30,122 nucleotides of DNA, taken from IMG/VR virus record IMGVR_UViG_2690316345_000022; one strand, 5' to 3'. The notes under the pieces were generated by a model. It was not told the DNA's origin, ran no database searches, and saw only the letters and a program-made list of their open reading frames with translations. The position numbers and the translations under genes were made by a program. Of this stretch, positions 1-23,573 are shown in pieces. Origin of the DNA: a virus. Taxonomy: Duplodnaviria > Heunggongvirae > Uroviricota > Caudoviricetes. Numbering within the stretch: position 1 is the first letter of the stretch; each line of letters begins with the position of its first letter.

Positions 1-276
1 ATGAGTATTCGTATTGAAATTGGCGAACGTTATGTCGTTACCAGTGACAGCTTCCAGTTTATTCTCCACGAGAAAAAGAGAGCGGAAAGCGGTAAAAACG
101 CCGGTCAGGAATGGCTGGCGGTGGTTGGTTATTACCCGAAATTAAGCCAGCTCGTTTCCGGCCTGATGCATCACGATATTCTGACCGGAAGCGCAAAGTC
201 TTTTGCTGATTTAAACGCGCAGGTTGAGCAACTCAGCAGGCGTTGTTCAGAGGCTTTTGGCTCATATGGCCGTTAA
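1..276 (+). CDS. Small early-operon hypothetical protein upstream of gene A (possibly 5'-truncated by window edge)
   Basis: ORF track 1..276, 91 aa; overlaps start of A as in P2 early operon (orf82/83-like position). Function unknown. Confidence 0.5.
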   Translation: MSIRIEIGERYVVTSDSFQFILHEKKRAESGKNAGQEWLAVVGYYPKLSQLVSGLMHHDILTGSAKSFADLNAQVEQLSRRCSEAFGSYGR

Positions 277-2551
277 AGCCTCCGGGCGTTTTGTCCCTCC
301 GTCAGCATTTGCTGCAGGCACCGGTAAGGCGTTTACCGGTGTTTATGCATGGAACGCGCCACGCGAGGCTGTCGGGCGCGAAAGACCCCTTACACGTGAC
401 GAGATGCGTCAGGTGCAAGGTGTTTTATCCACGATTAACCGCCTGCCTTACTTTTTGCGCTCGCTGTTTACTTCACGCTATGACTACATCCGTCGCAATA
501 AAAGCCCGGTGCACGGGTTTTATTTCCTCACATCCACTTTTCAGCGTCGTTTATGGCCGCGCATTGAGCGTGTGAATCAGCGCCATGAAATGAACACCGA
601 CGCGTCGTTACTGTTTCTGGCAGAGCGTGACCACTATGCGCGCCTGCCGGGAATGAATGACAAGGAGCTGAAAAAGTTTGCCGCCCGTATCTCATCGCAG
701 CTTTTCATGATGTATGAGGAACTCTGCGATGCATGGGTTGATGCGCATGGTGAAAAAGAATCGCTGTTTACGGATGAGGCGCAGGCTCACCTGTATGGTC
801 ATGTTGCTGGCGCTGCACGTGCTTTCAATATTTCCCCGCTCTACTGGAAAAAATACCGTAAAGGACAGATGACCACGAGGCAGGCATATTCTGCCATTGC
901 CCGCCTGTTTAACGATGAGTGGTGGACTCATCAGCTTAAAGGCCAGCGTATGCGCTGGCATGAGGCGTTACTGATTGCTGTCGGGGAGGTCAATAAAGAC
1001 CGTTCTCCTTATGCCAGTAAACATGCCATTCGTGATGTGCGTGCGCGCCGCCAGGCAAATCTGGAATTTCTTAAATCGTGTGACCTCGAAAACAGGGAAA
1101 CCGGCGAACGCATCGACCTTATCAGTAAGGTGATGGGCAGTATTTCTAATCCTGAAATTCGCCGGATGGAGCTGATGAACACCATTGCCGGTATTGAGCG
1201 TTACGCCGCCGCAGAGGGTGATGTGGGGATGTTTATCACGCTGACCGCGCCGTCAAAGTATCACCCGACACGTCAGGTCGGAAAAGGCGAAAGTAAAACC
1301 GTTCAGCTTAATCACGGCTGGAACGATGAGGCATTTAATCCAAAGGATGCGCAGCGTTATCTCTGCCGTATCTGGAGCCTGATGCGCACGGCATTCAAGG
1401 ATAATGATTTACAGGTCTACGGTTTGCGAGTCGTCGAGCCACACCACGACGGAACGCCGCACTGGCATATGATGCTTTTTTGTAATCCACGCCAGCGTAA
1501 CCAGATTATCGAAATCATGCGTCGCTACGCGCTCAAAGAGGATGGCGACGAAAGAGGAGCTGCGCGAAACCGTTTTCAGGCAAAACACCTTAACCGGGGT
1601 GGTGCTGCGGGGTATATCGCTAAATACATCTCAAAAAATATCGACGGCTATGCACTGGATGGTCAGCTCAATAACGATACCGGCAGGCCGCTTAAAGACA
1701 CTGCCGCGGCTGTTACCGCATGGGCGTCAACGTGGCGCATTCCGCAATTTAAAACGGTTGGACTGCCGACAATGGGGGCTTACCGTGAACTACGCAAATT
1801 GCCTCGCGGCGTCAGCATAGCTGATGAGTTTGACGAACGCGTCGAGGCTGCACGCGCTGCCGCAGACAGTGGCGATTTTGCGCTGTATATCAGCGCGCAG
1901 GGTGGGGCAAATGTCCCGCGCGATTGTCAGACTGTCAGGGTCGCCCGTAGCCCGTCGGATGACGTTAACGAGTACGAGGAAGAGGTCGAGAGAGTGGTCG
2001 GTATTTACGCGCCGCATCTCGGCGCGCGTCATATTCATATCACCAGAACCACGGACTGGCGCATTGTGCCGAAAGTGCCGGTCGTTGAGCCTTTGACTTT
2101 AAAAAGCGGCATCGCCGCGCCTCGGAGTCCTGTCAATAACTGTGGAAAGCTCACCGGTGGTGATACTTCGTTACCGGCTCCCACACCTTCTGAACACGCC
2201 GCAGCAGTGCTTAATCTGGTTGATGACGGTGTTATCGAATGGAATGACCCGGAGGTCGTGAGGGCGCTCAGGGGCGCATTAAAACACGACCTGAGAACAC
2301 CAAACCGTCAGCAAAGAAACGGAAGCCCGTTAAAACCACATGAAATTGCACCATCGGCCAGACTGACCCGGTCGGAACGAATGCAAATTACCCGTATCCG
2401 CGTTGACCTTGCTCAGAACGGTATCAGGCCGCAGCGATGGGAGCTTGAGGCGCTGGCGCGTGGCGCGACCGTAAATTACGACGGGAAAAAATTCACGTAT
2501 CCGGTCGCTGATGAGTGGCCGGGATTCTCAACAGTAATGGAGTGGACATGA
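266..2551 (+). CDS. A: Replication initiation protein gpA (rolling-circle nicking endonuclease)
   Basis: ORF 224..2551; internal ATG at 266 gives MAVKASGRFVPP..., 761 aa, the P2 gpA length; the longer TTG/ATG extension in the track is probably not used. Confidence 0.92.
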   Translation: MAVKASGRFVPPSAFAAGTGKAFTGVYAWNAPREAVGRERPLTRDEMRQVQGVLSTINRLPYFLRSLFTSRYDYIRRNKSPVHGFYFLTSTFQRRLWPRIERVNQRHEMNTDASLLFLAERDHYARLPGMNDKELKKFAARISSQLFMMYEELCDAWVDAHGEKESLFTDEAQAHLYGHVAGAARAFNISPLYWKKYRKGQMTTRQAYSAIARLFNDEWWTHQLKGQRMRWHEALLIAVGEVNKDRSPYASKHAIRDVRARRQANLEFLKSCDLENRETGERIDLISKVMGSISNPEIRRMELMNTIAGIERYAAAEGDVGMFITLTAPSKYHPTRQVGKGESKTVQLNHGWNDEAFNPKDAQRYLCRIWSLMRTAFKDNDLQVYGLRVVEPHHDGTPHWHMMLFCNPRQRNQIIEIMRRYALKEDGDERGAARNRFQAKHLNRGGAAGYIAKYISKNIDGYALDGQLNNDTGRPLKDTAAAVTAWASTWRIPQFKTVGLPTMGAYRELRKLPRGVSIADEFDERVEAARAAADSGDFALYISAQGGANVPRDCQTVRVARSPSDDVNEYEEEVERVVGIYAPHLGARHIHITRTTDWRIVPKVPVVEPLTLKSGIAAPRSPVNNCGKLTGGDTSLPAPTPSEHAAAVLNLVDDGVIEWNDPEVVRALRGALKHDLRTPNRQQRNGSPLKPHEIAPSARLTRSERMQITRIRVDLAQNGIRPQRWELEALARGATVNYDGKKFTYPVADEWPGFSTVMEWT

Positions 2552-3003
2552 TGGCAAAAATTCACGAGGTAAAGCTGCACGCAAAATATTTCGACCTTGT
2601 ACTGGAAGGAAAGAAACGCGCAGAGTTTCGGAAAAATGACCGTAATTATGAGCGTGGGGACACGTTGATTTTGCATGAATGGGGGCAGGGTGTGTATACG
2701 GGGCGAAAGGTTGAAGCCCGGATAACAGATGTTACTGACCTGTCAGACTGGCTGGAAGATTATGTCTTGCTAAGTATTGATCTGCTTAATACAGGCGCAT
2801 ATGAGATTGTGAACTGGAAAGAACTTAGTGAGCGTGGGCTGGTATTCAGAATTAATCATGAAATTATGCATCAGCTCGGCCTTGCTGTTATGTATGAACC
2901 AGAGACAGGGATGTCTGGCGGGGCAATGGTTGCCACGGATGGAGCATGGAACTATTCAGATGAACAGATGGAGCGTGCACAGCAAAACGGGTGGCTTGGA
3001 TAA
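2548..3003 (+). CDS. ASCH/PUA-like (DUF3850-like) domain protein
   Basis: ORF 2515..3003; likely start MMAKIHEVKLHAKYFDLVLEGKKRAEFRKNDRNYERGDTLILHEW, which resembles the ASCH/DUF3850 N-terminal signature; overlaps A stop (translational coupling). Confidence 0.6.
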   Translation: MMAKIHEVKLHAKYFDLVLEGKKRAEFRKNDRNYERGDTLILHEWGQGVYTGRKVEARITDVTDLSDWLEDYVLLSIDLLNTGAYEIVNWKELSERGLVFRINHEIMHQLGLAVMYEPETGMSGGAMVATDGAWNYSDEQMERAQQNGWLG

Positions 3004-3209
3004 TGCACAGAATACCAGGCGAGATACCGCAGCATAAAACTAAAAATATCAAGCTGATGGCTATTGTTCAGCGTTTACAGCGGATTATGGTCAACGAAAA
3101 TTTGACGCCCGATGAGCTGGTCGGGTGTGCCGAAATAGTCCGGGATAATTACGGGCGGTTTAACCATATCGGTAAGTCCAGAGTTACGCCACCACCACGC
3201 AGACGATAG
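2991..3209 (+). CDS. Hypothetical small protein
   Basis: ORF track only (72 aa); no recognisable motifs; overlaps end of preceding ORF by 13 nt. Confidence 0.3.
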   Translation: MAWIMHRIPGEIPQHKTKNIKLMAIVQRLQRIMVNENLTPDELVGCAEIVRDNYGRFNHIGKSRVTPPPRRR

Positions 3210-3259
3210 AGAACGCCGCCAGTCATGAAACTTGTTTTCAGGGCTGACGGCGTTGAACA

Positions 3260-3588
3260 ACGAGCGAAGCGAGGCGTTAGTTATGACTATGATGGATTTA
3301 TTATATAAAATACATATGGTTATGTTATTTGGGTTACTTCGGTACTTTGTAAATAATTTGGGTTAATGATGATAAGAATTAAGAATATTAGTAGCATGGT
3401 ATTGAGAGTATTATGTTGTGAACATAAAAGAGTGTATTTGCAGAAAAGCATCAGCTCACTTGGGGTAAAGTTATGCGTACATAAGGTGCAGGAGTTACAT
3501 TCGAAGCACATTCTTATCATTTGCTAAAACGCTCGAGATTTTTGGAAGATGCCGTTATACTCTATCGGAGGATAAATCGGAGACAAAA
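3260..3588. promoter_or_regulatory. Strongly AT-rich non-coding leader upstream of the methyltransferase gene; likely promoter region and left boundary of acquired cargo
   Basis: Abrupt drop in GC after 3210 (long A/T tracts such as ttatataaaatacatatggttatgttattt); GGAG-like RBS (tcggagg) about 25 nt upstream of the ATG at 3589. Confidence 0.35.
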
Positions 3589-4626
3589 ATGGCTGTAAAA
3601 GTTGTTGATCTTTTTTGTGGTGCTGGCGGTCTTACACATGGCCTAAGACAGGCCGGATTAAATGTAGTCGCTGGTATTGATATAGAGAGTGCATGCAGGG
3701 TTGCTTATGAAAGCAATAATAGTGCGCTTTTTATTGAAAAAGATATTTCTCTGGTAACCAAAGACGAGCTTGAAGGTCTATTTGAAGGGGCACAAGTTAA
3801 GGTATTGGCGGGATGTGCACCGTGCCAACCCTTTTCTAGGTATACGCAGGGGCGTGATAAGAAAAATGACAAAAAATGGCCTCTTCTTTACGAATTTGAA
3901 CGTTTAATTCGGGATGTTAATCCAGAGATTGTGACAATGGAAAATGTTCCTGATGTGACGAAGCATTCAGTTTACAGTGATTTCTATAATAGCTTAGAGT
4001 CATTAGGCTATTATGTTTGGGCAGGGACAGTTGAATGTGTAGATTATGGCATTCCACAAAATAGAGTAAGGCATGTATTATTAGCATCTAAATTTGCACC
4101 ACTTTCCTTTGTAAGACCAAAAGTACAAAAAACGGTAACGGTGAAAGAATGCATTGGTGGATTACCTCCATTAGAGGCAGGCCAGACGGATCCAGTTGAC
4201 CCTTTACATAAAGCAAGTAAATTAAGTGACATTAATCTTAAACGTATTGCTTGTTCAAAGCCTGGTGGAACGTGGCGAGATTGGCCGATAGAGTTGGTTG
4301 CGTCATGCCATATAAAGAAAAGTGGGCAAGGTTATGCCAGTGTCTATGGTCGTATGGACTGGGATAAACCAAGTCCTACCATCACCACGCTGTGTTATGG
4401 TTTTGGGAATGGCAGATTTGGCCACCCAGAGCAGAATCGTGCAATTTCTTTGAGAGAGGCAGCCCTGTTACAAACCTTTCCAAGTGATTACATTTTTACT
4501 GCACCTAATGAGAAGATCTCTGTGAAGAACGTTGGCAGGATGATCGGTAATGCCGTGCCGGTAAAATTAGGGAAGGTTATAGGTGAGTCAATTATAACCC
4601 ACCTAAAAGAGAATAATATAATTTAA
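3589..4626 (+). CDS. DNA (cytosine-5)-methyltransferase
   Basis: 345 aa with canonical C5-MTase motifs: I DLFCGAGG, IV GCAPCQPFS (catalytic Cys), VI ENVPDV, VIII QNRVR, X GNAVPVKLG. Target specificity unknown. Confidence 0.9.
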   Translation: MAVKVVDLFCGAGGLTHGLRQAGLNVVAGIDIESACRVAYESNNSALFIEKDISLVTKDELEGLFEGAQVKVLAGCAPCQPFSRYTQGRDKKNDKKWPLLYEFERLIRDVNPEIVTMENVPDVTKHSVYSDFYNSLESLGYYVWAGTVECVDYGIPQNRVRHVLLASKFAPLSFVRPKVQKTVTVKECIGGLPPLEAGQTDPVDPLHKASKLSDINLKRIACSKPGGTWRDWPIELVASCHIKKSGQGYASVYGRMDWDKPSPTITTLCYGFGNGRFGHPEQNRAISLREAALLQTFPSDYIFTAPNEKISVKNVGRMIGNAVPVKLGKVIGESIITHLKENNII

Positions 4627-5354
4627 GCCTGTAAACTTGATGATCGTATGTATAAGCGATCATCAAGATATTTTTGTATATTTTCTAGGATTTCTTCGAG
4701 GTAATAAAACACTTCATTTTTAAGAAGTTCAAGATTATCAATGGAAGTATCTTGGCCCTTGTTCAGAAAGGATTCTGAGCCATGCGCTAAAGCATTTCTG
4801 GCATTTTTTATATTTACTAAATTTCCACCATTATGAGTTTTTAAGCGATTTGTTTGAGAGGAAAATCCATATATATTAGCTACATCTCTAATTTTCTGTG
4901 CATCTACATTTCCAGAAAAAAGAGGGTTTTTATCTGCTTTGACTTGTTTTTTATGCTCCTCTAACCATTTTTTTAATACTAGTTTTGCAACATCGCCTTG
5001 TGAAAAATCCATGTCACTAACCATATGATGATCTAATTTTTTTAAGGCAAGTTTTGTTAAGCTTTCACATATCTTATCAATGCAAAGATCATTACATGAA
5101 TTGAGTTCGTCATGTATATCTTCAATAGCATTAGATATAGTGGCTTCTATTAGGTTATACAATATAATAAACGCATTTGCTTTAAGTATATGCGTCATTT
5201 CGATATCAATGTTACGAAGTTTGTACTCATCAGAATCACGATCTTTATAAGAGAATGATGGCCTCTCATCAATAATGAATTTAACAAAATCAAAATATTT
5301 TTCTATATCTTCTTTTCTTTCAGAGAATAATATTTTGCTGTTCATGGTGACCAC
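4623..5354 (-). CDS. HEPN-like domain protein (predicted nuclease), downstream partner of the DUF262 gene
   Basis: 243-aa ORF; predicted GTG start 6 nt after the DUF262 stop with GAGGAG RBS overlapping that stop; C-terminal ARNALAHG matches the HEPN Rx4-6H motif; very AT-rich. Confidence 0.6.
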   Translation of the reverse strand: MVTMNSKILFSERKEDIEKYFDFVKFIIDERPSFSYKDRDSDEYKLRNIDIEMTHILKANAFIILYNLIEATISNAIEDIHDELNSCNDLCIDKICESLTKLALKKLDHHMVSDMDFSQGDVAKLVLKKWLEEHKKQVKADKNPLFSGNVDAQKIRDVANIYGFSSQTNRLKTHNGGNLVNIKNARNALAHGSESFLNKGQDTSIDNLELLKNEVFYYLEEILENIQKYLDDRLYIRSSSLQA

Positions 5355-5360
5355 GGATAA

Positions 5361-6485
5361 TTACTCCTCACTGTCATCTTGAACAGTATCTTGAGTCTGT
5401 ACACCTAAAAGTTTATCTCTTACATATTCAATTCGTGCTTTAACTTTAGGTTTTGAGTTCGAGGCATCAGATCTAGTATGTTTAATGAACTCTACAGAGT
5501 TAAGCCATTCAGTTACTGGGGCTGGTGTTATGCTTGGATTAGTTTGTAAGGCTAAAGTTGAACCAACAGCCAGTGCTTCAAAACGTATTCTTGGTACAGT
5601 ATTTGCCGTTTCGTTTTTTCTGAAACCATAGGGGAAATTCTGTTTTACAAATCTGCACATATCTTGAAATTGTTTAGCTAATTTGTTTTCTTGTTCAGCG
5701 GAAAATGTATTATTTCTATTATCAAGATATTGAGTTAGGAATGTGTCAACACTTTTTTCAAAGTGGAGATAGTTATCACAATATGCGAAATATCTAAGAA
5801 CTAATTCAGGATATTCTCCTCGATTGATTCGAGCATCGTTTAGGGGACATATTTCTCTAAACAATGGAAGTTCAGACAGACTATTAATGAAATCCAGGAA
5901 AGGACCATCATTGCTGCCTTGTCGCTGCTCCATTGTTGTAAGTCTTATTCCGCCTGTATTTAATCTATCGAAAATCTCTCTCCTTGCTTCTTCATCACAT
6001 AATTCAGTGAGTTCAATCATTCTAATAGTTTTCCTGTCGAATCTAAGCTTACGCGCAGGTGTGAAGTCAGAGTATTTGAATCCGTTAGCTGAAGTTAGTT
6101 TTTTTAATCCAGTAAGAGTAAATTTATCATTTAGGAAATGATAAAGTGTTCTAATCCTCTGGCTGCCATCAACGATTTCCAATCGTCCATCGTCATTTCC
6201 GATATCGGCGACAAATACATATGGAATAGGAATGTTTAGTAAAAGCGATTCAATGAATCTTGATTTTTGTATATTGTTCCAAACAAACTCCCTTTGATAG
6301 TCAGGAATATATAGCTCAGCTTGATCGGTTTCTAATCCTTTCTGAAACTTGTCAACAATAACACTAACAGGAAATTCTCTGATTTGGTGATCGGTTATTT
6401 TTTGCATGGATTTGATCTGGCTATCCAGTTCAATTTTATCTTCTTCTGTGATCACTTGTTCAGGCTGTCTTGGGACTCTTGCCAT
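5361..6485 (-). CDS. DUF262 / ParB-like (GmrSD N-terminal-type) domain protein
   Basis: ORF 5361..6512; likely ATG at 6485 (MARVPRQPEQ...) preceded by AAGGAG RBS; contains IVDGSQRIRTL, a variant of the DGQQR motif of DUF262; no obvious DUF1524/HNH motif seen by eye. Confidence 0.75.
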   Translation of the reverse strand: MARVPRQPEQVITEEDKIELDSQIKSMQKITDHQIREFPVSVIVDKFQKGLETDQAELYIPDYQREFVWNNIQKSRFIESLLLNIPIPYVFVADIGNDDGRLEIVDGSQRIRTLYHFLNDKFTLTGLKKLTSANGFKYSDFTPARKLRFDRKTIRMIELTELCDEEARREIFDRLNTGGIRLTTMEQRQGSNDGPFLDFINSLSELPLFREICPLNDARINRGEYPELVLRYFAYCDNYLHFEKSVDTFLTQYLDNRNNTFSAEQENKLAKQFQDMCRFVKQNFPYGFRKNETANTVPRIRFEALAVGSTLALQTNPSITPAPVTEWLNSVEFIKHTRSDASNSKPKVKARIEYVRDKLLGVQTQDTVQDDSEE

Positions 6486-6628
6486 GTGGTTTCTCCTTAT
6501 GCTTATTTGCAATAAGTTGCATTAGTTTGCATGTGTAATTTTATACTGATTTAATCCCACAAACTCTTTACATGCAAGGGGTTGAAGCTTAAATGCAACT
6601 GCATTAAAACCGTCCCATGAAGCGGGCG

Positions 6629-6647
6629 GGCGAGGCGGGGAAAGCAC
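6629..6647. other. cos: cos site (19-nt cohesive-end sequence of P2-type phages)
   Basis: Exact string GGCGAGGCGGGGAAAGCAC, recalled as the P2 cohesive end, lies between the accessory cargo and the 3' end of Q, the expected position. Confidence 0.7.
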
Positions 6648-6817: not shown

Positions 6818-7852
6818 TCAGCCGTTGTCAGTGTCCAGTGAGTAGTTTTTAAAGCGGATGACCTCCTGACCGAGCCAGCCGTTTATTTCCCGAATCCTGT
6901 CCTGTAGCGGGATAAGCTCATTGCGGACAAAGACCTTTGCCACTTTCTCAATATCGCCCAGCGACCCGACGTTCTCCGGCTTGCCGCCCATCAACTGAAA
7001 GGGGATGCGGTGCGCGTCCAGCAGGTCAGCGGCGCTGGCTTTTTTGATATTAAAAAAATCGTCCTTCGTCGCCACTTCACTGAGGGGGATAATTTTAATG
7101 CCGTCGGCTTTCCCCTGCGGGGCATAGAGAAACAGATTTTTAAAGTTGTTGCGGCCTTTCGACTTCACCATGTTTTCGCGGAGCATTTCGATATCGTTGC
7201 GATCCTGCACGGCATCGGTGACGTACATGATGTATCCGGCATGTGCGCCGTTTTCGTAATACTTGCGGCGGAACAGCGTGGCCGACTCATTCAGCCAGGC
7301 AGAGTTAAGGGCGCTGAGATATTCCGGCAGGCCGTACAGCTCCTGATTAATATCCGGCTCCAGCAGGTGAAACACGGAGCCGGGCGCGAAAGGTGTCGGC
7401 TCATGGAAGGACGGCACCCACCAGTAAACATCCTCTTCCACGCCACGGCGGGTATATTTTGCCGGTGAGGTTTCCAGTCTGATGACCTTACCGGTGGTGC
7501 TGTAACGCTTTTCCAGAAACGCATTACCGAACACCAGAAAATCCAGCACAAAGCGGCTGAAATCCTGCTGAGAAAGCCACGGGTGTGGGATAAACGTTGA
7601 GGCCAGAATATTACGTTTGACGTAAATCGGTGAGCTGTGATGCACGGCAGCACGCAGGCTTTTTGCCAGACCGGTAAAGCTGACCGGTGGCTCATACCAT
7701 CTGCCGTTACTGATGCACTCGACGTAATCCAGAATGTCACGGCGGTCGAGTACCGGCACCGGCTCACCAAAGGTGAATGCCTCCATTTTCGGGGCGCTGG
7801 CGGTCATTTTTTTTGCCGCAGGTTGCGGTGTTTTCCCTTTTTTCTTGCTCAT
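6818..7852 (-). CDS. Q: Portal protein gpQ
   Basis: 344 aa, the P2 gpQ length; start overlaps P stop (ATGA). Confidence 0.93.
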   Translation of the reverse strand: MSKKKGKTPQPAAKKMTASAPKMEAFTFGEPVPVLDRRDILDYVECISNGRWYEPPVSFTGLAKSLRAAVHHSSPIYVKRNILASTFIPHPWLSQQDFSRFVLDFLVFGNAFLEKRYSTTGKVIRLETSPAKYTRRGVEEDVYWWVPSFHEPTPFAPGSVFHLLEPDINQELYGLPEYLSALNSAWLNESATLFRRKYYENGAHAGYIMYVTDAVQDRNDIEMLRENMVKSKGRNNFKNLFLYAPQGKADGIKIIPLSEVATKDDFFNIKKASAADLLDAHRIPFQLMGGKPENVGSLGDIEKVAKVFVRNELIPLQDRIREINGWLGQEVIRFKNYSLDTDNG

Positions 7853-20710: not shown

Positions 20711-21238
20711 ATGCAGCATTTGATAAATATAACGGCAGGTAATCCAAAAACGGTTGAACAATATCAATTGACAAAGGACTTTGATGTTGTCTGGTTTTTT
20801 TCAGAAGATGGTAAGAACTGGTACGAAGAACAAAAGTATTTTGCTGATGACACGATAAAAATAGCGTACGACAAAGATAATATTATCCGCTATGTGGAAA
20901 AGGATGTGACAGCTATCAGACCAGATGGATTAAGTGTTGTTGAAGTGCCGGATATTACTGCTAATCGACGGGCGGACATTTCAGGGAACTGGATGTTTAA
21001 GGATGGTACAGTGATTAAACGAATTTATACGGCAGAGGAATTGCAGCAGCAGGCAGAAAATCGGAAAGCCAGACTTCTTGCAGATGCTGAATCCGTGATT
21101 TTGCCGCTGGAGCGCGCGGTCAGACTGAACATGGCAACAGATGAGGAGCGTAGCCGACTGGAAGCATGGGAACGCTACAGCGTTCTGGTCAGTCGTGTGG
21201 ATCCTGCAAATCCTGAATGGCCGGAAATGCCGCAATAA
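20711..21238 (+). CDS. G: Tail fibre assembly chaperone gpG
   Basis: 175 aa directly after H; position as P2 gpG. Confidence 0.85.
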
Positions 21239-21459
21239 GTTGTATGATCTCTGGAGTGAGCAAACGTATCTATGGCACAGAGTAAAGCCTAATCTGACAG
21301 GCCGCTCTGTGTCTGGAGTAGATTTTAGTAAAGCATTATTTTATTAGTGCAAATTCTAATCAATACATTTTATGTATATGATATCCTGCAGACTTTAATG
21401 ACTTGGTTTAGGCTAACCAGATAACACTGAAGGAATATTTTTGATAATTAAGGTACGGT

Positions 21460-22053
21460 ATGTTTACTAAGCGACGATTAAAAAATATTAACTGGGAGGC
21501 AAGTTCAGTGATTCTTGCTATGGTTCTCTTTGTTGGAAATATATTTTATACAAATCATCGTGATGATATAAGCATGGAGGCTGAGAGGGACAGTATCAGA
21601 ACAATGTTTGCATATGAAATCGCTAATAACCATCGCGCTCTCACTTTTCTTGATAAAACGAGACATATTGGCTTTGACGAAAATTCGGAGCATTTTGTTG
21701 GCGAGCCTTTTGCCATTAATGTCAAATCATTAGGGGGGCCTCGCTTACAGATTGCATTAAACCAGACTGATAAAGTGTTTAAATCCTACTTCAGCGAATT
21801 AAGTAAGCTTGATAAAGAGGATGTTACTCTTCTTATGGACTATTACCATGAGCAAAGCATCCTGCTGGAGCGTGTAAAATCTACGTTACAGAAGATGAAA
21901 AGTGGTAATGATATTAAAGTTGATATTGATGGTTACTTATTAGAAGAACACTTCATGAATGAGCTTAATCTTTCTAATATTTTGCTTAAACGCTATAGCC
22001 ATTTGTTGTCACAATACGCTAAAGAACATAAAACAAAAGATTTACATAATTGA
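21460..22053 (+). CDS. Hypothetical membrane-anchored protein in the G-FI accessory slot (P2 Z/fun position)
   Basis: 197-aa ORF in an AT-rich island; N-terminus MFTKRRLKNINWEASSVILAMVLFVGNIFY is a basic stretch followed by a hydrophobic helix; AAGG RBS upstream; no recognisable catalytic motifs. Confidence 0.6.
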   Translation: MFTKRRLKNINWEASSVILAMVLFVGNIFYTNHRDDISMEAERDSIRTMFAYEIANNHRALTFLDKTRHIGFDENSEHFVGEPFAINVKSLGGPRLQIALNQTDKVFKSYFSELSKLDKEDVTLLMDYYHEQSILLERVKSTLQKMKSGNDIKVDIDGYLLEEHFMNELNLSNILLKRYSHLLSQYAKEHKTKDLHN

Positions 22054-22382
22054 TAATCTGCTAATGGTTATTCATGGGGTAACTATGTTTTATATGTAAT
22101 CCAACTCAGATGAATTATTGATTCTGGATAATAACCGCAGAGCGGCATATACCCTGACAGGCAAATGTCCGCTTCTTGTTCAAAGCAGACTGTCAGATTT
22201 GATAACTTTTGGGCTATGTAAATTGTCAGTCGGAAAATGAGTGAGTTCAAATCAGGACTGGCGGGCGAATTGCCCGCATTTTCTTTATCTGTTGTTTCAT
22301 CCACTGACCAACCAGGTCAAATAGCGTCTCATGCACTGCCCAACAGAAAATAGTTGCACCCATTAACCACGGAGTTAAACGG

Positions 22383-23573
22383 ATGAGTGACTATCATCAC
22401 GGCGTGCAGGTGCTGGAGATTAACGACGGCACCCGCGTCATTTCCACCGTATCCACTGCCATTGTCGGCATGGTCTGCACGGCCAGCGATGCGGATGCGG
22501 AAACCTTCCCCCTCAATAAACCTGTGCTGATTACCAATGTGCAGAGCGCAATTGCAAAGGCCGGTAAAAAAGGCACGCTGGCGGCATCGTTGCAGGCCAT
22601 CGCTGACCAGTCAAAACCGGTCACCGTTGTCGTGCGCGTGGAAGACGGCAGCGGCGACGACGAGGAAACGAAACTCGCGCAGACCGTTTCCAATATCATC
22701 GGCACCACCGACGAAAACGGTCAGTACACCGGACTGAAAGCCCTGCTGGCGGCGGAGTCGGTAACCGGTGTTAAACCGCGCATTCTCGGTGTGCCGGGAC
22801 TGGACACCAAAGAGGTTGCCGTCGCACTGGCATCAGTCTGTCAGAAGCTGCGCGCTTTCGGGTATATCAGCGCATGGGGCTGTAAAACCATTTCCGAGGT
22901 GAAAGCCTACCGCCAGAATTTCAGCCAGCGTGAGCTGATGGTCATCTGGCCGGATTTCCTCGCATGGGATACGGTCACCAGTACCACCGCCACCGCGTAT
23001 GCCACCGCCCGTGCGCTGGGTCTGCGCGCTAAAATCGACCAGGAGCAGGGCTGGCATAAAACGCTGTCCAATGTCGGGGTGAACGGTGTTACCGGCATCA
23101 GCGCCTCTGTATTCTGGGATTTGCAGGAGTCCGGCACTGATGCTGACCTGCTTAACGAGTCAGGCGTCACAACGCTGATTCGCCGTGACGGTTTCCGCTT
23201 CTGGGGTAACCGTACCTGCTCTGATGACCCGCTGTTCCTCTTTGAAAACTACACCCGCACCGCGCAGGTGCTGGCCGATACGATGGCTGAGGCGCACATG
23301 TGGGCGGTGGACAAGCCCATCACCGCAACGCTGATTCGCGACATCGTTGACGGCATCAATGCCAAATTCCGAGAGCTGAAAACAAACGGCTATATCGTGG
23401 ATGCGACCTGCTGGTTCAGCGAAGAATCCAACGATGCGGAAACCCTCAAGGCCGGAAAACTGTATATCGACTACGACTATACACCGGTGCCTCCTCTTGA
23501 AAACCTGACCCTGCGCCAGCGTATTACCGATAAATACCTGGCAAATCTGGTCACTTCGGTTAACAGCAATTAA
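22383..23573 (+). CDS. FI: Contractile tail sheath protein gpFI
   Basis: 396 aa; length and position as in P2. Confidence 0.93.
   Translation: MSDYHHGVQVLEINDGTRVISTVSTAIVGMVCTASDADAETFPLNKPVLITNVQSAIAKAGKKGTLAASLQAIADQSKPVTVVVRVEDGSGDDEETKLAQTVSNIIGTTDENGQYTGLKALLAAESVTGVKPRILGVPGLDTKEVAVALASVCQKLRAFGYISAWGCKTISEVKAYRQNFSQRELMVIWPDFLAWDTVTSTTATAYATARALGLRAKIDQEQGWHKTLSNVGVNGVTGISASVFWDLQESGTDADLLNESGVTTLIRRDGFRFWGNRTCSDDPLFLFENYTRTAQVLADTMAEAHMWAVDKPITATLIRDIVDGINAKFRELKTNGYIVDATCWFSEESNDAETLKAGKLYIDYDYTPVPPLENLTLRQRITDKYLANLVTSVNSN

Follow-up and report, generated by a model that had tools for sequence, protein, structure and literature searches.

Introduction

An operon type made up of a MAE_28990 HEPN gene, a ParB (DUF262) gene, and a DNA methylase gene was predicted in 2013 by Anantharaman, Makarova, Burroughs, Koonin & Aravind (PMC3710099). 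That comparative-genomics work places the operon among HEPN systems linked to restriction-modification (R-M), reads HEPN proteins of this kind as belonging to a multi-pronged defense, and calls the partner a "ParB nuclease" (PMC3710099). The locus described here carries the same gene set. It is a 3.3-kb island in a 30,122-nucleotide stretch of DNA from a tailed phage of the class Caudoviricetes (IMG/VR record IMGVR_UViG_2690316345_000022; the whole stretch is referred to below as the window), and it encodes a C5 cytosine DNA methyltransferase (C5-MTase), a HEPN protein, and a DUF262 protein. The island is foreign cargo of the P2 gpA-gpQ (tin/old) hotspot of a P2-like prophage and is very probably a defense cassette, as its homologies and context, the catalytic motifs, and the fold predictions all indicate. 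On balance, we lean toward reading it as a self-contained, horizontally mobile, R-M-like anti-phage cassette, a "moron" of the prophage, in which the methyltransferase (MTase) would mark self, the DUF262 protein would read DNA, and the HEPN protein would be the effector.

The gpA-gpQ site is an established defense hotspot (PMC9122126, PMC9519451). The survey of this site in Escherichia coli by Rousset et al. (2022) covered 18,150 loci with 1,650 arrangements, and its Table S5A gives the same Pfam combination as P2 gpA-gpQ hotspot cargo (PMC9122126). One entry of that table holds WP_000124986 and WP_000279422, the proteins of a locus in E. coli 1002W03 (L002) that has ~88% DNA identity to the island of the window. 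The gene set has been described in silico and catalogued at this hotspot before, and it is unnamed. The sequence-only reading that this work followed up could not confirm that the combination had been described, and the novelty it implied is lowered accordingly. What is new here is the split of DUF262-HEPN pairs into two subfamilies, one with the MTase ("trio") and one without it ("duo").

Several named systems share components with the island. PD-T4-2, a two-gene DUF262 + HEPN system from ECOR65, was validated against T4 by Vassallo et al. (2022); PD-T4-2A is DUF262/ParB/DndB-like, and HHpred relates PD-T4-2B to PF18735 (97.8%) and PF18737 (96.9%) (PMC9519451). The same study describes PD-lambda-5, a ParB/HEPN protein with a methyltransferase that gives broad protection in E. 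coli, so that two validated relatives of the same logic protect this host (PMC9519451). Menshen (NsnABC; Millman et al. 2022; Li et al. 2025, PMC12065111) needs NsnB, an ABC ATPase with DUF3696, and the NsnC effector (inPIN plus nuclease). In the characterized GmrSD, BrxU, and SspE systems, DNA cleavage resides in DUF1524, and DUF262 is the nucleoside triphosphatase (NTPase)/sensor (PMC10952713, PMC12065111).

A foreign three-gene island in the gpA-gpQ slot

The island and its genes are as follows.

3283-6592, no strand: whole foreign island, delimited by GC content and by the breaks in backbone identity
3589-4626, plus strand: C5 cytosine DNA methyltransferase, 345 aa (PF00145, E=1.2e-55; TIGR00675 above cutoff)
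4623-5354, minus strand: MAE_28990-family HEPN protein, 243 aa, predicted RNase effector (PF18737 HEPN_MAE_28990, E=3.9e-20; PF18735, E=3.4e-7)
5361-6485, minus strand: NsnA-like DUF262 protein, 374 aa, predicted DNA/modification sensor (PF03235 GmrSD_N/DUF262, E=2.3e-28)

The GC content of the island is 0.361, compared to 0.539 in the rest of the window, which puts it 4.7 standard deviations under segments of the same size elsewhere (mean 0.543, standard deviation 0.039, minimum 0.437); the GC profile drops to 0.29-0.44 across this region. DNA identity of the P2 backbone to other P2-family phages ends at position 3282 on the left and is regained from 6593 on the right. The island follows gpA and two small backbone open reading frames (ORFs) and precedes cos and the portal gene Q, beyond which lies the terminase gene P, and it has the arrangement that defines the hotspot, in which a P2-like phage carries variable genes after replication gene A and before cos/portal Q. 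In other P2-like prophages the same slot carries different cargo between the shared backbone segments, and an ~88%-identical copy of the island occupies it in 4 of 5,426 complete E. coli genomes. No flanking repeats were found at the island boundaries, and the island is without an Rfam match; no Rfam family, boundary repeat, or transposase accounts for the insertion.

These results agree with the sequence-only reading in most respects. It had placed a low-GC foreign island at 3210-6600 in the accessory slot between gpA and cos, with a left edge that proves accurate to within ~70 bp, and it had described a plus-strand C5-MTase gene converging on a minus-strand DUF262-HEPN operon, an arrangement and domain content that the ORFs and the profile searches with Pfam and PADLOC confirm. 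Homology, conserved motifs, predicted folds, mobility, and the known character of the hotspot all lend good support to its choice of the island as the prime candidate for a defense module in the window.

The MTase and HEPN genes converge, with a 4-bp overlap at the stop codons; on the minus strand, 6 bp separate the DUF262 stop from the HEPN start. All catalytic motifs of the MTase are intact (FCGAGG, PC79Q, E118NV, QNRVR, and GNAVP), from which activity is predicted, and the protein aligns with M.HaeIII, DNMT1, and M.HhaI over the catalytic core. The match to solved homologues is confined to that core and yields no recognition motif. Among the three cassette proteins, NCBIfam names the MTase only, and in PADLOC this protein matches generic C5-MTase profiles, with DrmMII (E=3.5e-94) and MTase_II at the top.

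Both Pfam matches of the HEPN protein are above the Pfam cutoffs, and the protein carries the invariant motif R186-N-x-L-A-H191-G (Rx4H). It has no match to the PADLOC profiles at E<=0.1. The DUF262 gene begins, in the mechanical ORF call, at a TTG (5361-6512, 383 aa), but gene callers on identical contigs and an AAGGAG ribosome binding site favor the ATG at 6485. The N-terminal part of its product is a ParB/Srx-fold NTPase domain with the motifs QRxxxW (Q64R65..W69), DGxQR (D106-R110), and FxxxN (F172-N176), and the C-terminal half is predicted to form an all-helical, ParBDB-like domain with a conserved TRSDASNS(K/R)PK motif. In PADLOC the protein scores higher with NsnA (E=3.7e-55, positions 34-376 of 385) than with PD-T4-2_A (PDLC04027, E=2.4e-34, positions 56-355 of 363). 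Since the DUF262 protein matches both of these profiles and the HEPN protein matches nothing, PADLOC would call no system at the island. Full-length PHROGs families exist for the two minus-strand proteins, phrog_3846 and phrog_2598, and both are labelled "unknown function."

The components of the 2013 operon type are thus all present in the window: a MAE_28990 HEPN with a conserved Rx4-6H motif, a ParB-DUF262 gene in the same operon, and an adjacent DNA methylase. The model put forward with that prediction would make the locus a type II-like R-M system with a suicide arm, in which the DUF262 protein is the DNase acting on unmethylated DNA and the HEPN protein is a back-up abortive effector, kept in check by the R-M proteins and freed once restriction is blocked or swamped, on the pattern of PrrC and EcoprrI. 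We consider this rather unlikely. The model has behind it the "ParB nuclease" label and the argument for a multi-pronged combination of R-M with HEPN (PMC3710099), together with a weak match of the DUF262 domain to the PADLOC REase_II profile (E=1.9e-8; up to 6e-12 in relatives), and the MTase linkage described below fits it as well as it fits the reading that we prefer. The characterized DUF262 enzymes, however, cut through DUF1524, with DUF262 as the NTPase/sensor, and a Pfam scan found no DUF1524 (none at E<=0.1), HNH, PD-(D/E)xK, or GIY-YIG domain in the cassette proteins. Furthermore, the helical C-terminal domain of a DUF262 protein of this kind has been equated with a DNA-binding module by Li et al. 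(PMC12065111).

Trio and duo subfamilies

Relatives were sampled by a profile scan with one genome per species, which gave 478 HEPN relatives, and 79 loci were fetched. In essentially all 79, a DUF262 gene lies directly upstream of the HEPN gene on the same strand. An orthologous C5-MTase gene (E<=1e-118) adjoins the pair in 33 loci, where it is mostly convergent, in many cases with the 4-bp overlap, and heads the operon in three; an N4/N6 MTase stands in its place in two loci. Another 34 loci have no adjacent MTase, and their neighbors are housekeeping genes such as those for ClpB and aconitase.

A neighbor-joining tree built on concatenated DUF262 and HEPN sequences from species-representative genomes collects the MTase-less loci into essentially one clade, the duo. 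In the clade that includes the window, the trio, the orthologous MTase is immediately adjacent in all 33 loci with readable flanks. DUF262-HEPN pairs therefore comprise an obligate trio subfamily, with the MTase, and a duo subfamily without it. Trio members come from enterobacteria, Thalassotalea, Cytophagales, relatives of Beggiatoa, Desulfuromonadales, and a large cyanobacterial group. Across these phyla, the MTase orthologues that adjoin DUF262-HEPN are 52-80% identical, and their target-recognition region is conserved. Because the linkage is strict within the clade across phyla, carriers, and two gene orders, we take the MTase to be integral to the system.

The trio is mobile across phages, plasmids, and transposons. 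The exact HEPN protein of the window is found on 22 contigs, with the same P2 context in each of the six places inspected, and a reciprocal search from the MTase found the full convergent trio on 53 of the 65 IMG/VR contigs that have a relative of the MTase, 24 of the 53 being P2-like. Other carriers include a Tn7-like transposon of Pseudomonas, a Polaromonas plasmid or integrative and conjugative element, phages of Moraxella catarrhalis, and Peduovirus P24B2, and in a Shewanella island the trio sits beside an MvaI/BcnI R-M system and an AAA_21 ATPase.

Such contexts bear on the view that the cassette is an addiction or stabilization module, with a stable HEPN toxin and MTase-dependent protection causing post-segregational killing that keeps the prophage, and with defense as an incidental effect. 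Toxin and MTase are both on hand for such a role, but post-segregational killing is of little use to an integrated prophage, the trio occurs in chromosomal defense contexts such as that of Shewanella, and the closest validated relatives are anti-phage systems. We regard this explanation as very unlikely, and we continue with the reading of the island as an R-M-like defense cassette.

The Tn7-like cargo of the Pseudomonas protegens type (L090, 6978-8927) shows one elaboration of the trio: a 649-aa GHKL/HATPase_c (MORC-like) gene lies between the HEPN and C5-MTase genes, downstream of TnsC/TnsD/TnsE, and could be a fourth, optional component.

Purifying selection acts on each of the three genes: their ratios of nonsynonymous to synonymous substitution rates (dN/dS) are 0.10-0.17 (~0.17 for the MTase). 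Cyanobacterial orthologues are ~56% identical to the window protein for the MTase, ~50% for DUF262, and ~37% for HEPN, and the target-recognition region of the MTase is equally conserved. In these comparisons, the specificity-determining parts are conserved and the HEPN effector is the fastest-evolving component.

In Microcoleus and its relatives, an MTase-less DUF262-HEPN pair occupies a fixed chromosomal site beside clpB (L015, L026, L032, L034, L040, L043, L048-L050, L054, L057, L060, L067, L070, L072, L077, L079, and L080). DUF262 is cut to ~177 aa in about half of these species, with the HEPN protein at full length, which looks like the ongoing decay of a vertically inherited copy. Overall, DUF262 is truncated in 16 of the 34 MTase-less loci and in 2 of 37 with the MTase. 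We considered this decay as a possible sign of R-M-type dependence on the MTase and rejected it as independent evidence, since nearly all of the truncations are in the one Microcoleus lineage and the MTase-less loci are a single clade. The sequence-only reading had allowed that the block might turn up outside mobile elements as ordinary housekeeping genes; MTase-less pairs do adjoin housekeeping genes in cyanobacterial chromosomes, yet their patchy distribution and frequent decay show that they are not housekeeping genes themselves.

A further duo, with a DUF262 protein 38% and a MAE_28990 HEPN protein 27% identical to those of the window, lies beside the parM partition genes of the E. coli IncFIA plasmid pVE155 (NZ_AP018354; L161, 2415-4115). 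Its HEPN protein is also present on five other Escherichia/Salmonella plasmids (H41-H43, H45, and H46) and, like that of the window, has no PADLOC match.

Proposed mechanism and alternatives

In the reading we prefer, the C5-MTase would provide the self mark by methylating a short, fixed motif in the DNA of host and prophage, a role to which its intact catalytic motifs and its strict linkage to the other two genes both point. The NsnA-like DUF262 protein, with its ParB/Srx NTPase and presumed helical DNA-binding domains, would read the modification state of DNA and couple it to NTP binding or hydrolysis; here the argument is by analogy with its nearest structural neighbors, SspE, GmrSD/BrxU, and DndI, which sense phosphorothioate or hypermodified cytosine. 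On meeting unmarked incoming DNA, it would release or activate its operon partner, the HEPN protein, whose fold and invariant Rx4H motif suggest an RNase effector. Cleavage of RNA would then arrest translation or phage gene expression, with abortive infection or direct inhibition as the outcome. These activities are our interpretation of an established anatomy, with its motifs, folds, foreign composition, linkage, selection, and mobility.

A more specific and more tentative form of this proposal is that the trio is an R-M system without a restriction DNase, in which the DUF262 NTPase detects missing 5-methylcytosine (m5C) and activates the HEPN RNase, and that the MTase-less clade and PD-T4-2 are the same pair switched to modification-dependent or other triggers. 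We regard this as possible rather than probable. If the logic that we propose is correct, the cassette would stand with SspE and Dnd as an example of a DUF262 sensor wired to a DNA-modification module. In this example the mark would be ordinary m5C and the effector would act on RNA, and the boundary between R-M and abortive infection would become less sharp. Under the more specific form, the trio, the duo clade, and PD-T4-2 would form a natural series on how DUF262 sensors change what they read.

A number of observations weigh against the reading of the island as an R-M-like cassette. Known DUF262 sensors mostly recognize modified, not unmodified, DNA. No DNase domain is evident in the cassette, so that "restriction" may not apply in its strict sense. 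The tested-systems table of Rousset et al. has no DUF262 entry (PMC9122126), and a full-text literature search found no experimental study of this family. The sensor-effector pair has no intrinsic need of a methyl mark, since the duo clade, pVE155, and PD-T4-2 are all without the MTase; the DUF262 gene of the cyanobacterial duo clade has a dN/dS of ~0.2, which indicates that the pair is maintained with no MTase adjacent, and the pVE155 pair is carried in that form by a conjugative plasmid. These cases show that the DUF262-HEPN core can work with other triggers. Conversely, a more distant relative of the MTase (~60% identical) stands alone on 12 of the 65 viral contigs. In P24B2 (NC_049387; L094, ~2018-3041), finally, the orthologous C5-MTase gene (75-84% identical) has a single frameshift near residue 228 that splits it, and it adjoins intact DUF262 (71%) and HEPN (59%) genes, which reflects either a real loss of the MTase that the pair tolerates or an assembly error.

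Part of this evidence favors a different explanation, that the slot holds two independent cargos: a PD-T4-2-like, type IV-like DUF262-HEPN pair that senses hypermodified phage DNA and an orphan C5-MTase that either guards the P2-like genome against restriction by the host or changes the expression of host genes. The protection that PD-T4-2 gives against T4 with no MTase, the duo clade and the plasmid duo, and the solitary MTases on the 12 viral contigs are all in line with it, as is the P24B2 frameshift if it is real; so, too, is the label "Type-IV restriction" that Rousset et al. give to a Vibrio locus with DUF262, DUF262/DndB, and HEPN_MAE_28990. Against it stands the adjacency of the MTase in 33 of 33 loci of the trio clade. 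These loci come from Pseudomonadota, Cyanobacteriota, Bacteroidota, and Desulfuromonadales and include cargo of at least four kinds of mobile element; the adjacency is kept through two gene orders, and many of the loci retain the 4-bp stop-codon overlap. The MTase also diverges in step with its partners, and a recombination hotspot would be expected to shuffle independent genes apart. For these reasons we judge the two-cargo explanation to be quite unlikely and retain the R-M-like cassette as our preferred reading.

The cassette is easily testable, being 3.3 kb long, carried by an E. coli-type P2 prophage, and provided with clear targets for point mutation. The trio and duo clades could also aid annotation: PADLOC-style tools call nothing at these loci, although at least 53 IMG/VR contigs carry the trio and there are 478 HEPN relatives. 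The finding is an incremental one: earlier publications cover both the gene set and its place in the hotspot, and related systems have been validated.

Flanks, regulatory regions, and a second slot

The remaining features of the region are listed below.

224-2551, plus strand: gpA replication endonuclease, left backbone flank (ORF; PF05840 Phage_GPA on the identical gene in L082-L086; so annotated in L001 and L002)
2548-3209, plus strand: two small backbone ORFs between gpA and the island (PF12961, PF04266, PF24187; phrog_1812, phrog_11386)
2548-3003, plus strand: the first of these, a DUF3850/ASCH protein (also DUF7415), after gpA
2991-3209, plus strand: the second, a 72-aa ORF, before the island
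3283-3588, plus strand: AT-rich intergenic region, presumed MTase promoter and ribosome binding site, as suggested by its sequence
4636-4667, plus strand: hairpin with a 12-bp stem followed by a T-run, possible MTase terminator (consensus match only, from a scan for terminator-like sequences)
6486-6592, minus strand: island-specific region upstream of the DUF262-HEPN operon, with the ribosome binding site AAGGAG and an AT-rich stretch that has repeated TTGCAT/ATGCAA words; presumed promoter/operator
6629-6647, plus strand: cos, 19-nt P2-type cohesive-end sequence GGCGAGGCGGGGAAAGCAC, in the flank and outside the cassette
6818-7852, minus strand: gpQ portal protein, right backbone flank (ORF; PF04860 on the identical gene; annotated as portal in relatives)

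The two small ORFs at 2548-3209 are kept in other P2-like prophages that have different cargo, and we therefore assign them to the backbone and not to the island. On the other side, GGCGAGGCGGGGAAAGCAC at 6629-6647 is what we take to be the P2 cohesive end, and the cos region is 96-97% identical to that of P2-family phages.

In the region upstream of the MTase, promoter-like sites are at consensus level only and are no commoner than in shuffled sequence. The possible terminator hairpin lies just past the MTase stop codon, within the 3' coding end of the HEPN gene. Ahead of the operon, the ribosome binding site AAGGAG is at 6498-6493 on the minus strand, 7 nt before the DUF262 ATG. The AT-rich sequence at 6500-6612, upstream of the DUF262 start, has several words resembling TTGCAT/ATGCAA (gttgcatt, tttgcatg, acatgcaa, and aaatgcaactgcatt), which could be operator sites for a regulator; one of them recurs as a weak direct repeat at 5534-5555.

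The second P2 hotspot, the Z/fun slot, is at 21239-22382 of the window, between the tail-fiber assembly gene G (20711-21238) and the sheath gene FI (22383-23573), and is also low in GC (~0.36). Its single ORF (21460-22053, plus strand, 197 aa) has no Pfam or PADLOC match and is a candidate for cargo.

Comparison with known systems

No named system matches all three genes of the island. The sequence-only reading had held its proposal open to a match with a named, characterized defense system, and the comparison gives a divided answer: the architecture of PD-T4-2 does match that of the DUF262-HEPN pair, as a distant relative, but the complete set of three genes belongs to no named system. PD-T4-2 and the window pair share a two-gene sensor-effector architecture, and the match of the window DUF262 protein to the PD-T4-2_A profile is almost full-length. 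PD-T4-2 differs in having no methyltransferase and in the size of its HEPN protein (~165 aa for PD-T4-2B, compared to 243 aa in the window), and the window DUF262 protein scores higher on NsnA. The PADLOC PD-T4-2_B profile has no match at E<=0.1 to the window HEPN protein and none to the HEPN proteins of the duo clade or the plasmids. The window pair is only distantly related to PD-T4-2, with the HEPN similarity at the superfamily level through shared Pfam families, and the identification of the duo clade or the IncF plasmid duo with PD-T4-2 was rejected on the same profile.

PD-lambda-5 unites the same three activities as the island, having a DNA methyltransferase as well as ParB-fold and HEPN-like parts. 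Its ParB and HEPN parts are fused, however, and its MTase is of the D12 class (Dam-like, N6-adenine), whereas the genes of the window are separate and the MTase is a C5 enzyme; the PADLOC PD-Lambda-5 profile matches no window protein. The DUF262 protein is NsnA-like from end to end, with the ParB-DUF262 domain, the helical C-terminal domain, and the QRxxxW, DGxQR, and FxxxN motifs, but the island does not belong to Menshen: NsnB and NsnC are absent, the three-gene island is without an ATPase, DUF3696, or inPIN match, and the partners of the DUF262 protein are HEPN and the MTase.

The window shares with GmrSD, BrxU, and SspE a DUF262 NTPase domain with the DGxQR motif. It differs from these systems and from DndI in being without the DUF1524 His-Me nuclease, in having a separate HEPN protein as effector, and in being linked to m5C and not to phosphorothioate, and with no DUF1524 domain present we rejected a GmrSD-type type IV enzyme. 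With classical type II R-M systems it shares a predicted C5-MTase with all motifs; on the restriction side, the profile searches gave a weak REase_II match on the DUF262 domain and no PD-(D/E)xK, HNH, or GIY-YIG domain. DISARM was likewise rejected, since the DrmMII match of the MTase is generic C5-MTase similarity and no DrmA, DrmB (DUF1998), or DrmC (PLD) is found in or near the island. WonAB, from the WASA-1 prophage of Vibrio cholerae, consists of an OLD-ABC ATPase and a PD-(D/E)xK nuclease and is unrelated, and the Hma-embedded candidates HEC-05, HEC-06, and HEC-08 are GmrSD-like or other HEPN proteins and not this trio.

A hotspot locus of Vibrio parahaemolyticus J-C2-34, listed in supplementary file 7 of Rousset et al. 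(2022) as "DUF262 + DUF262/DndB + HEPN_MAE_28990" and labelled "Type-IV restriction," represents another partner arrangement for the same HEPN family, with DUF262 split or duplicated and no MTase.

The closest correspondence is with the operon type predicted in 2013 and catalogued in 2022, with which the window copy shares all three components, the HEPN family PF18737, and the hotspot, and from which it has no structural difference. The window copy is a diverged allele of that operon type, with ~88% DNA identity to the copies in complete E. coli genomes and 91% protein identity to the nearest of the cluster representatives listed.

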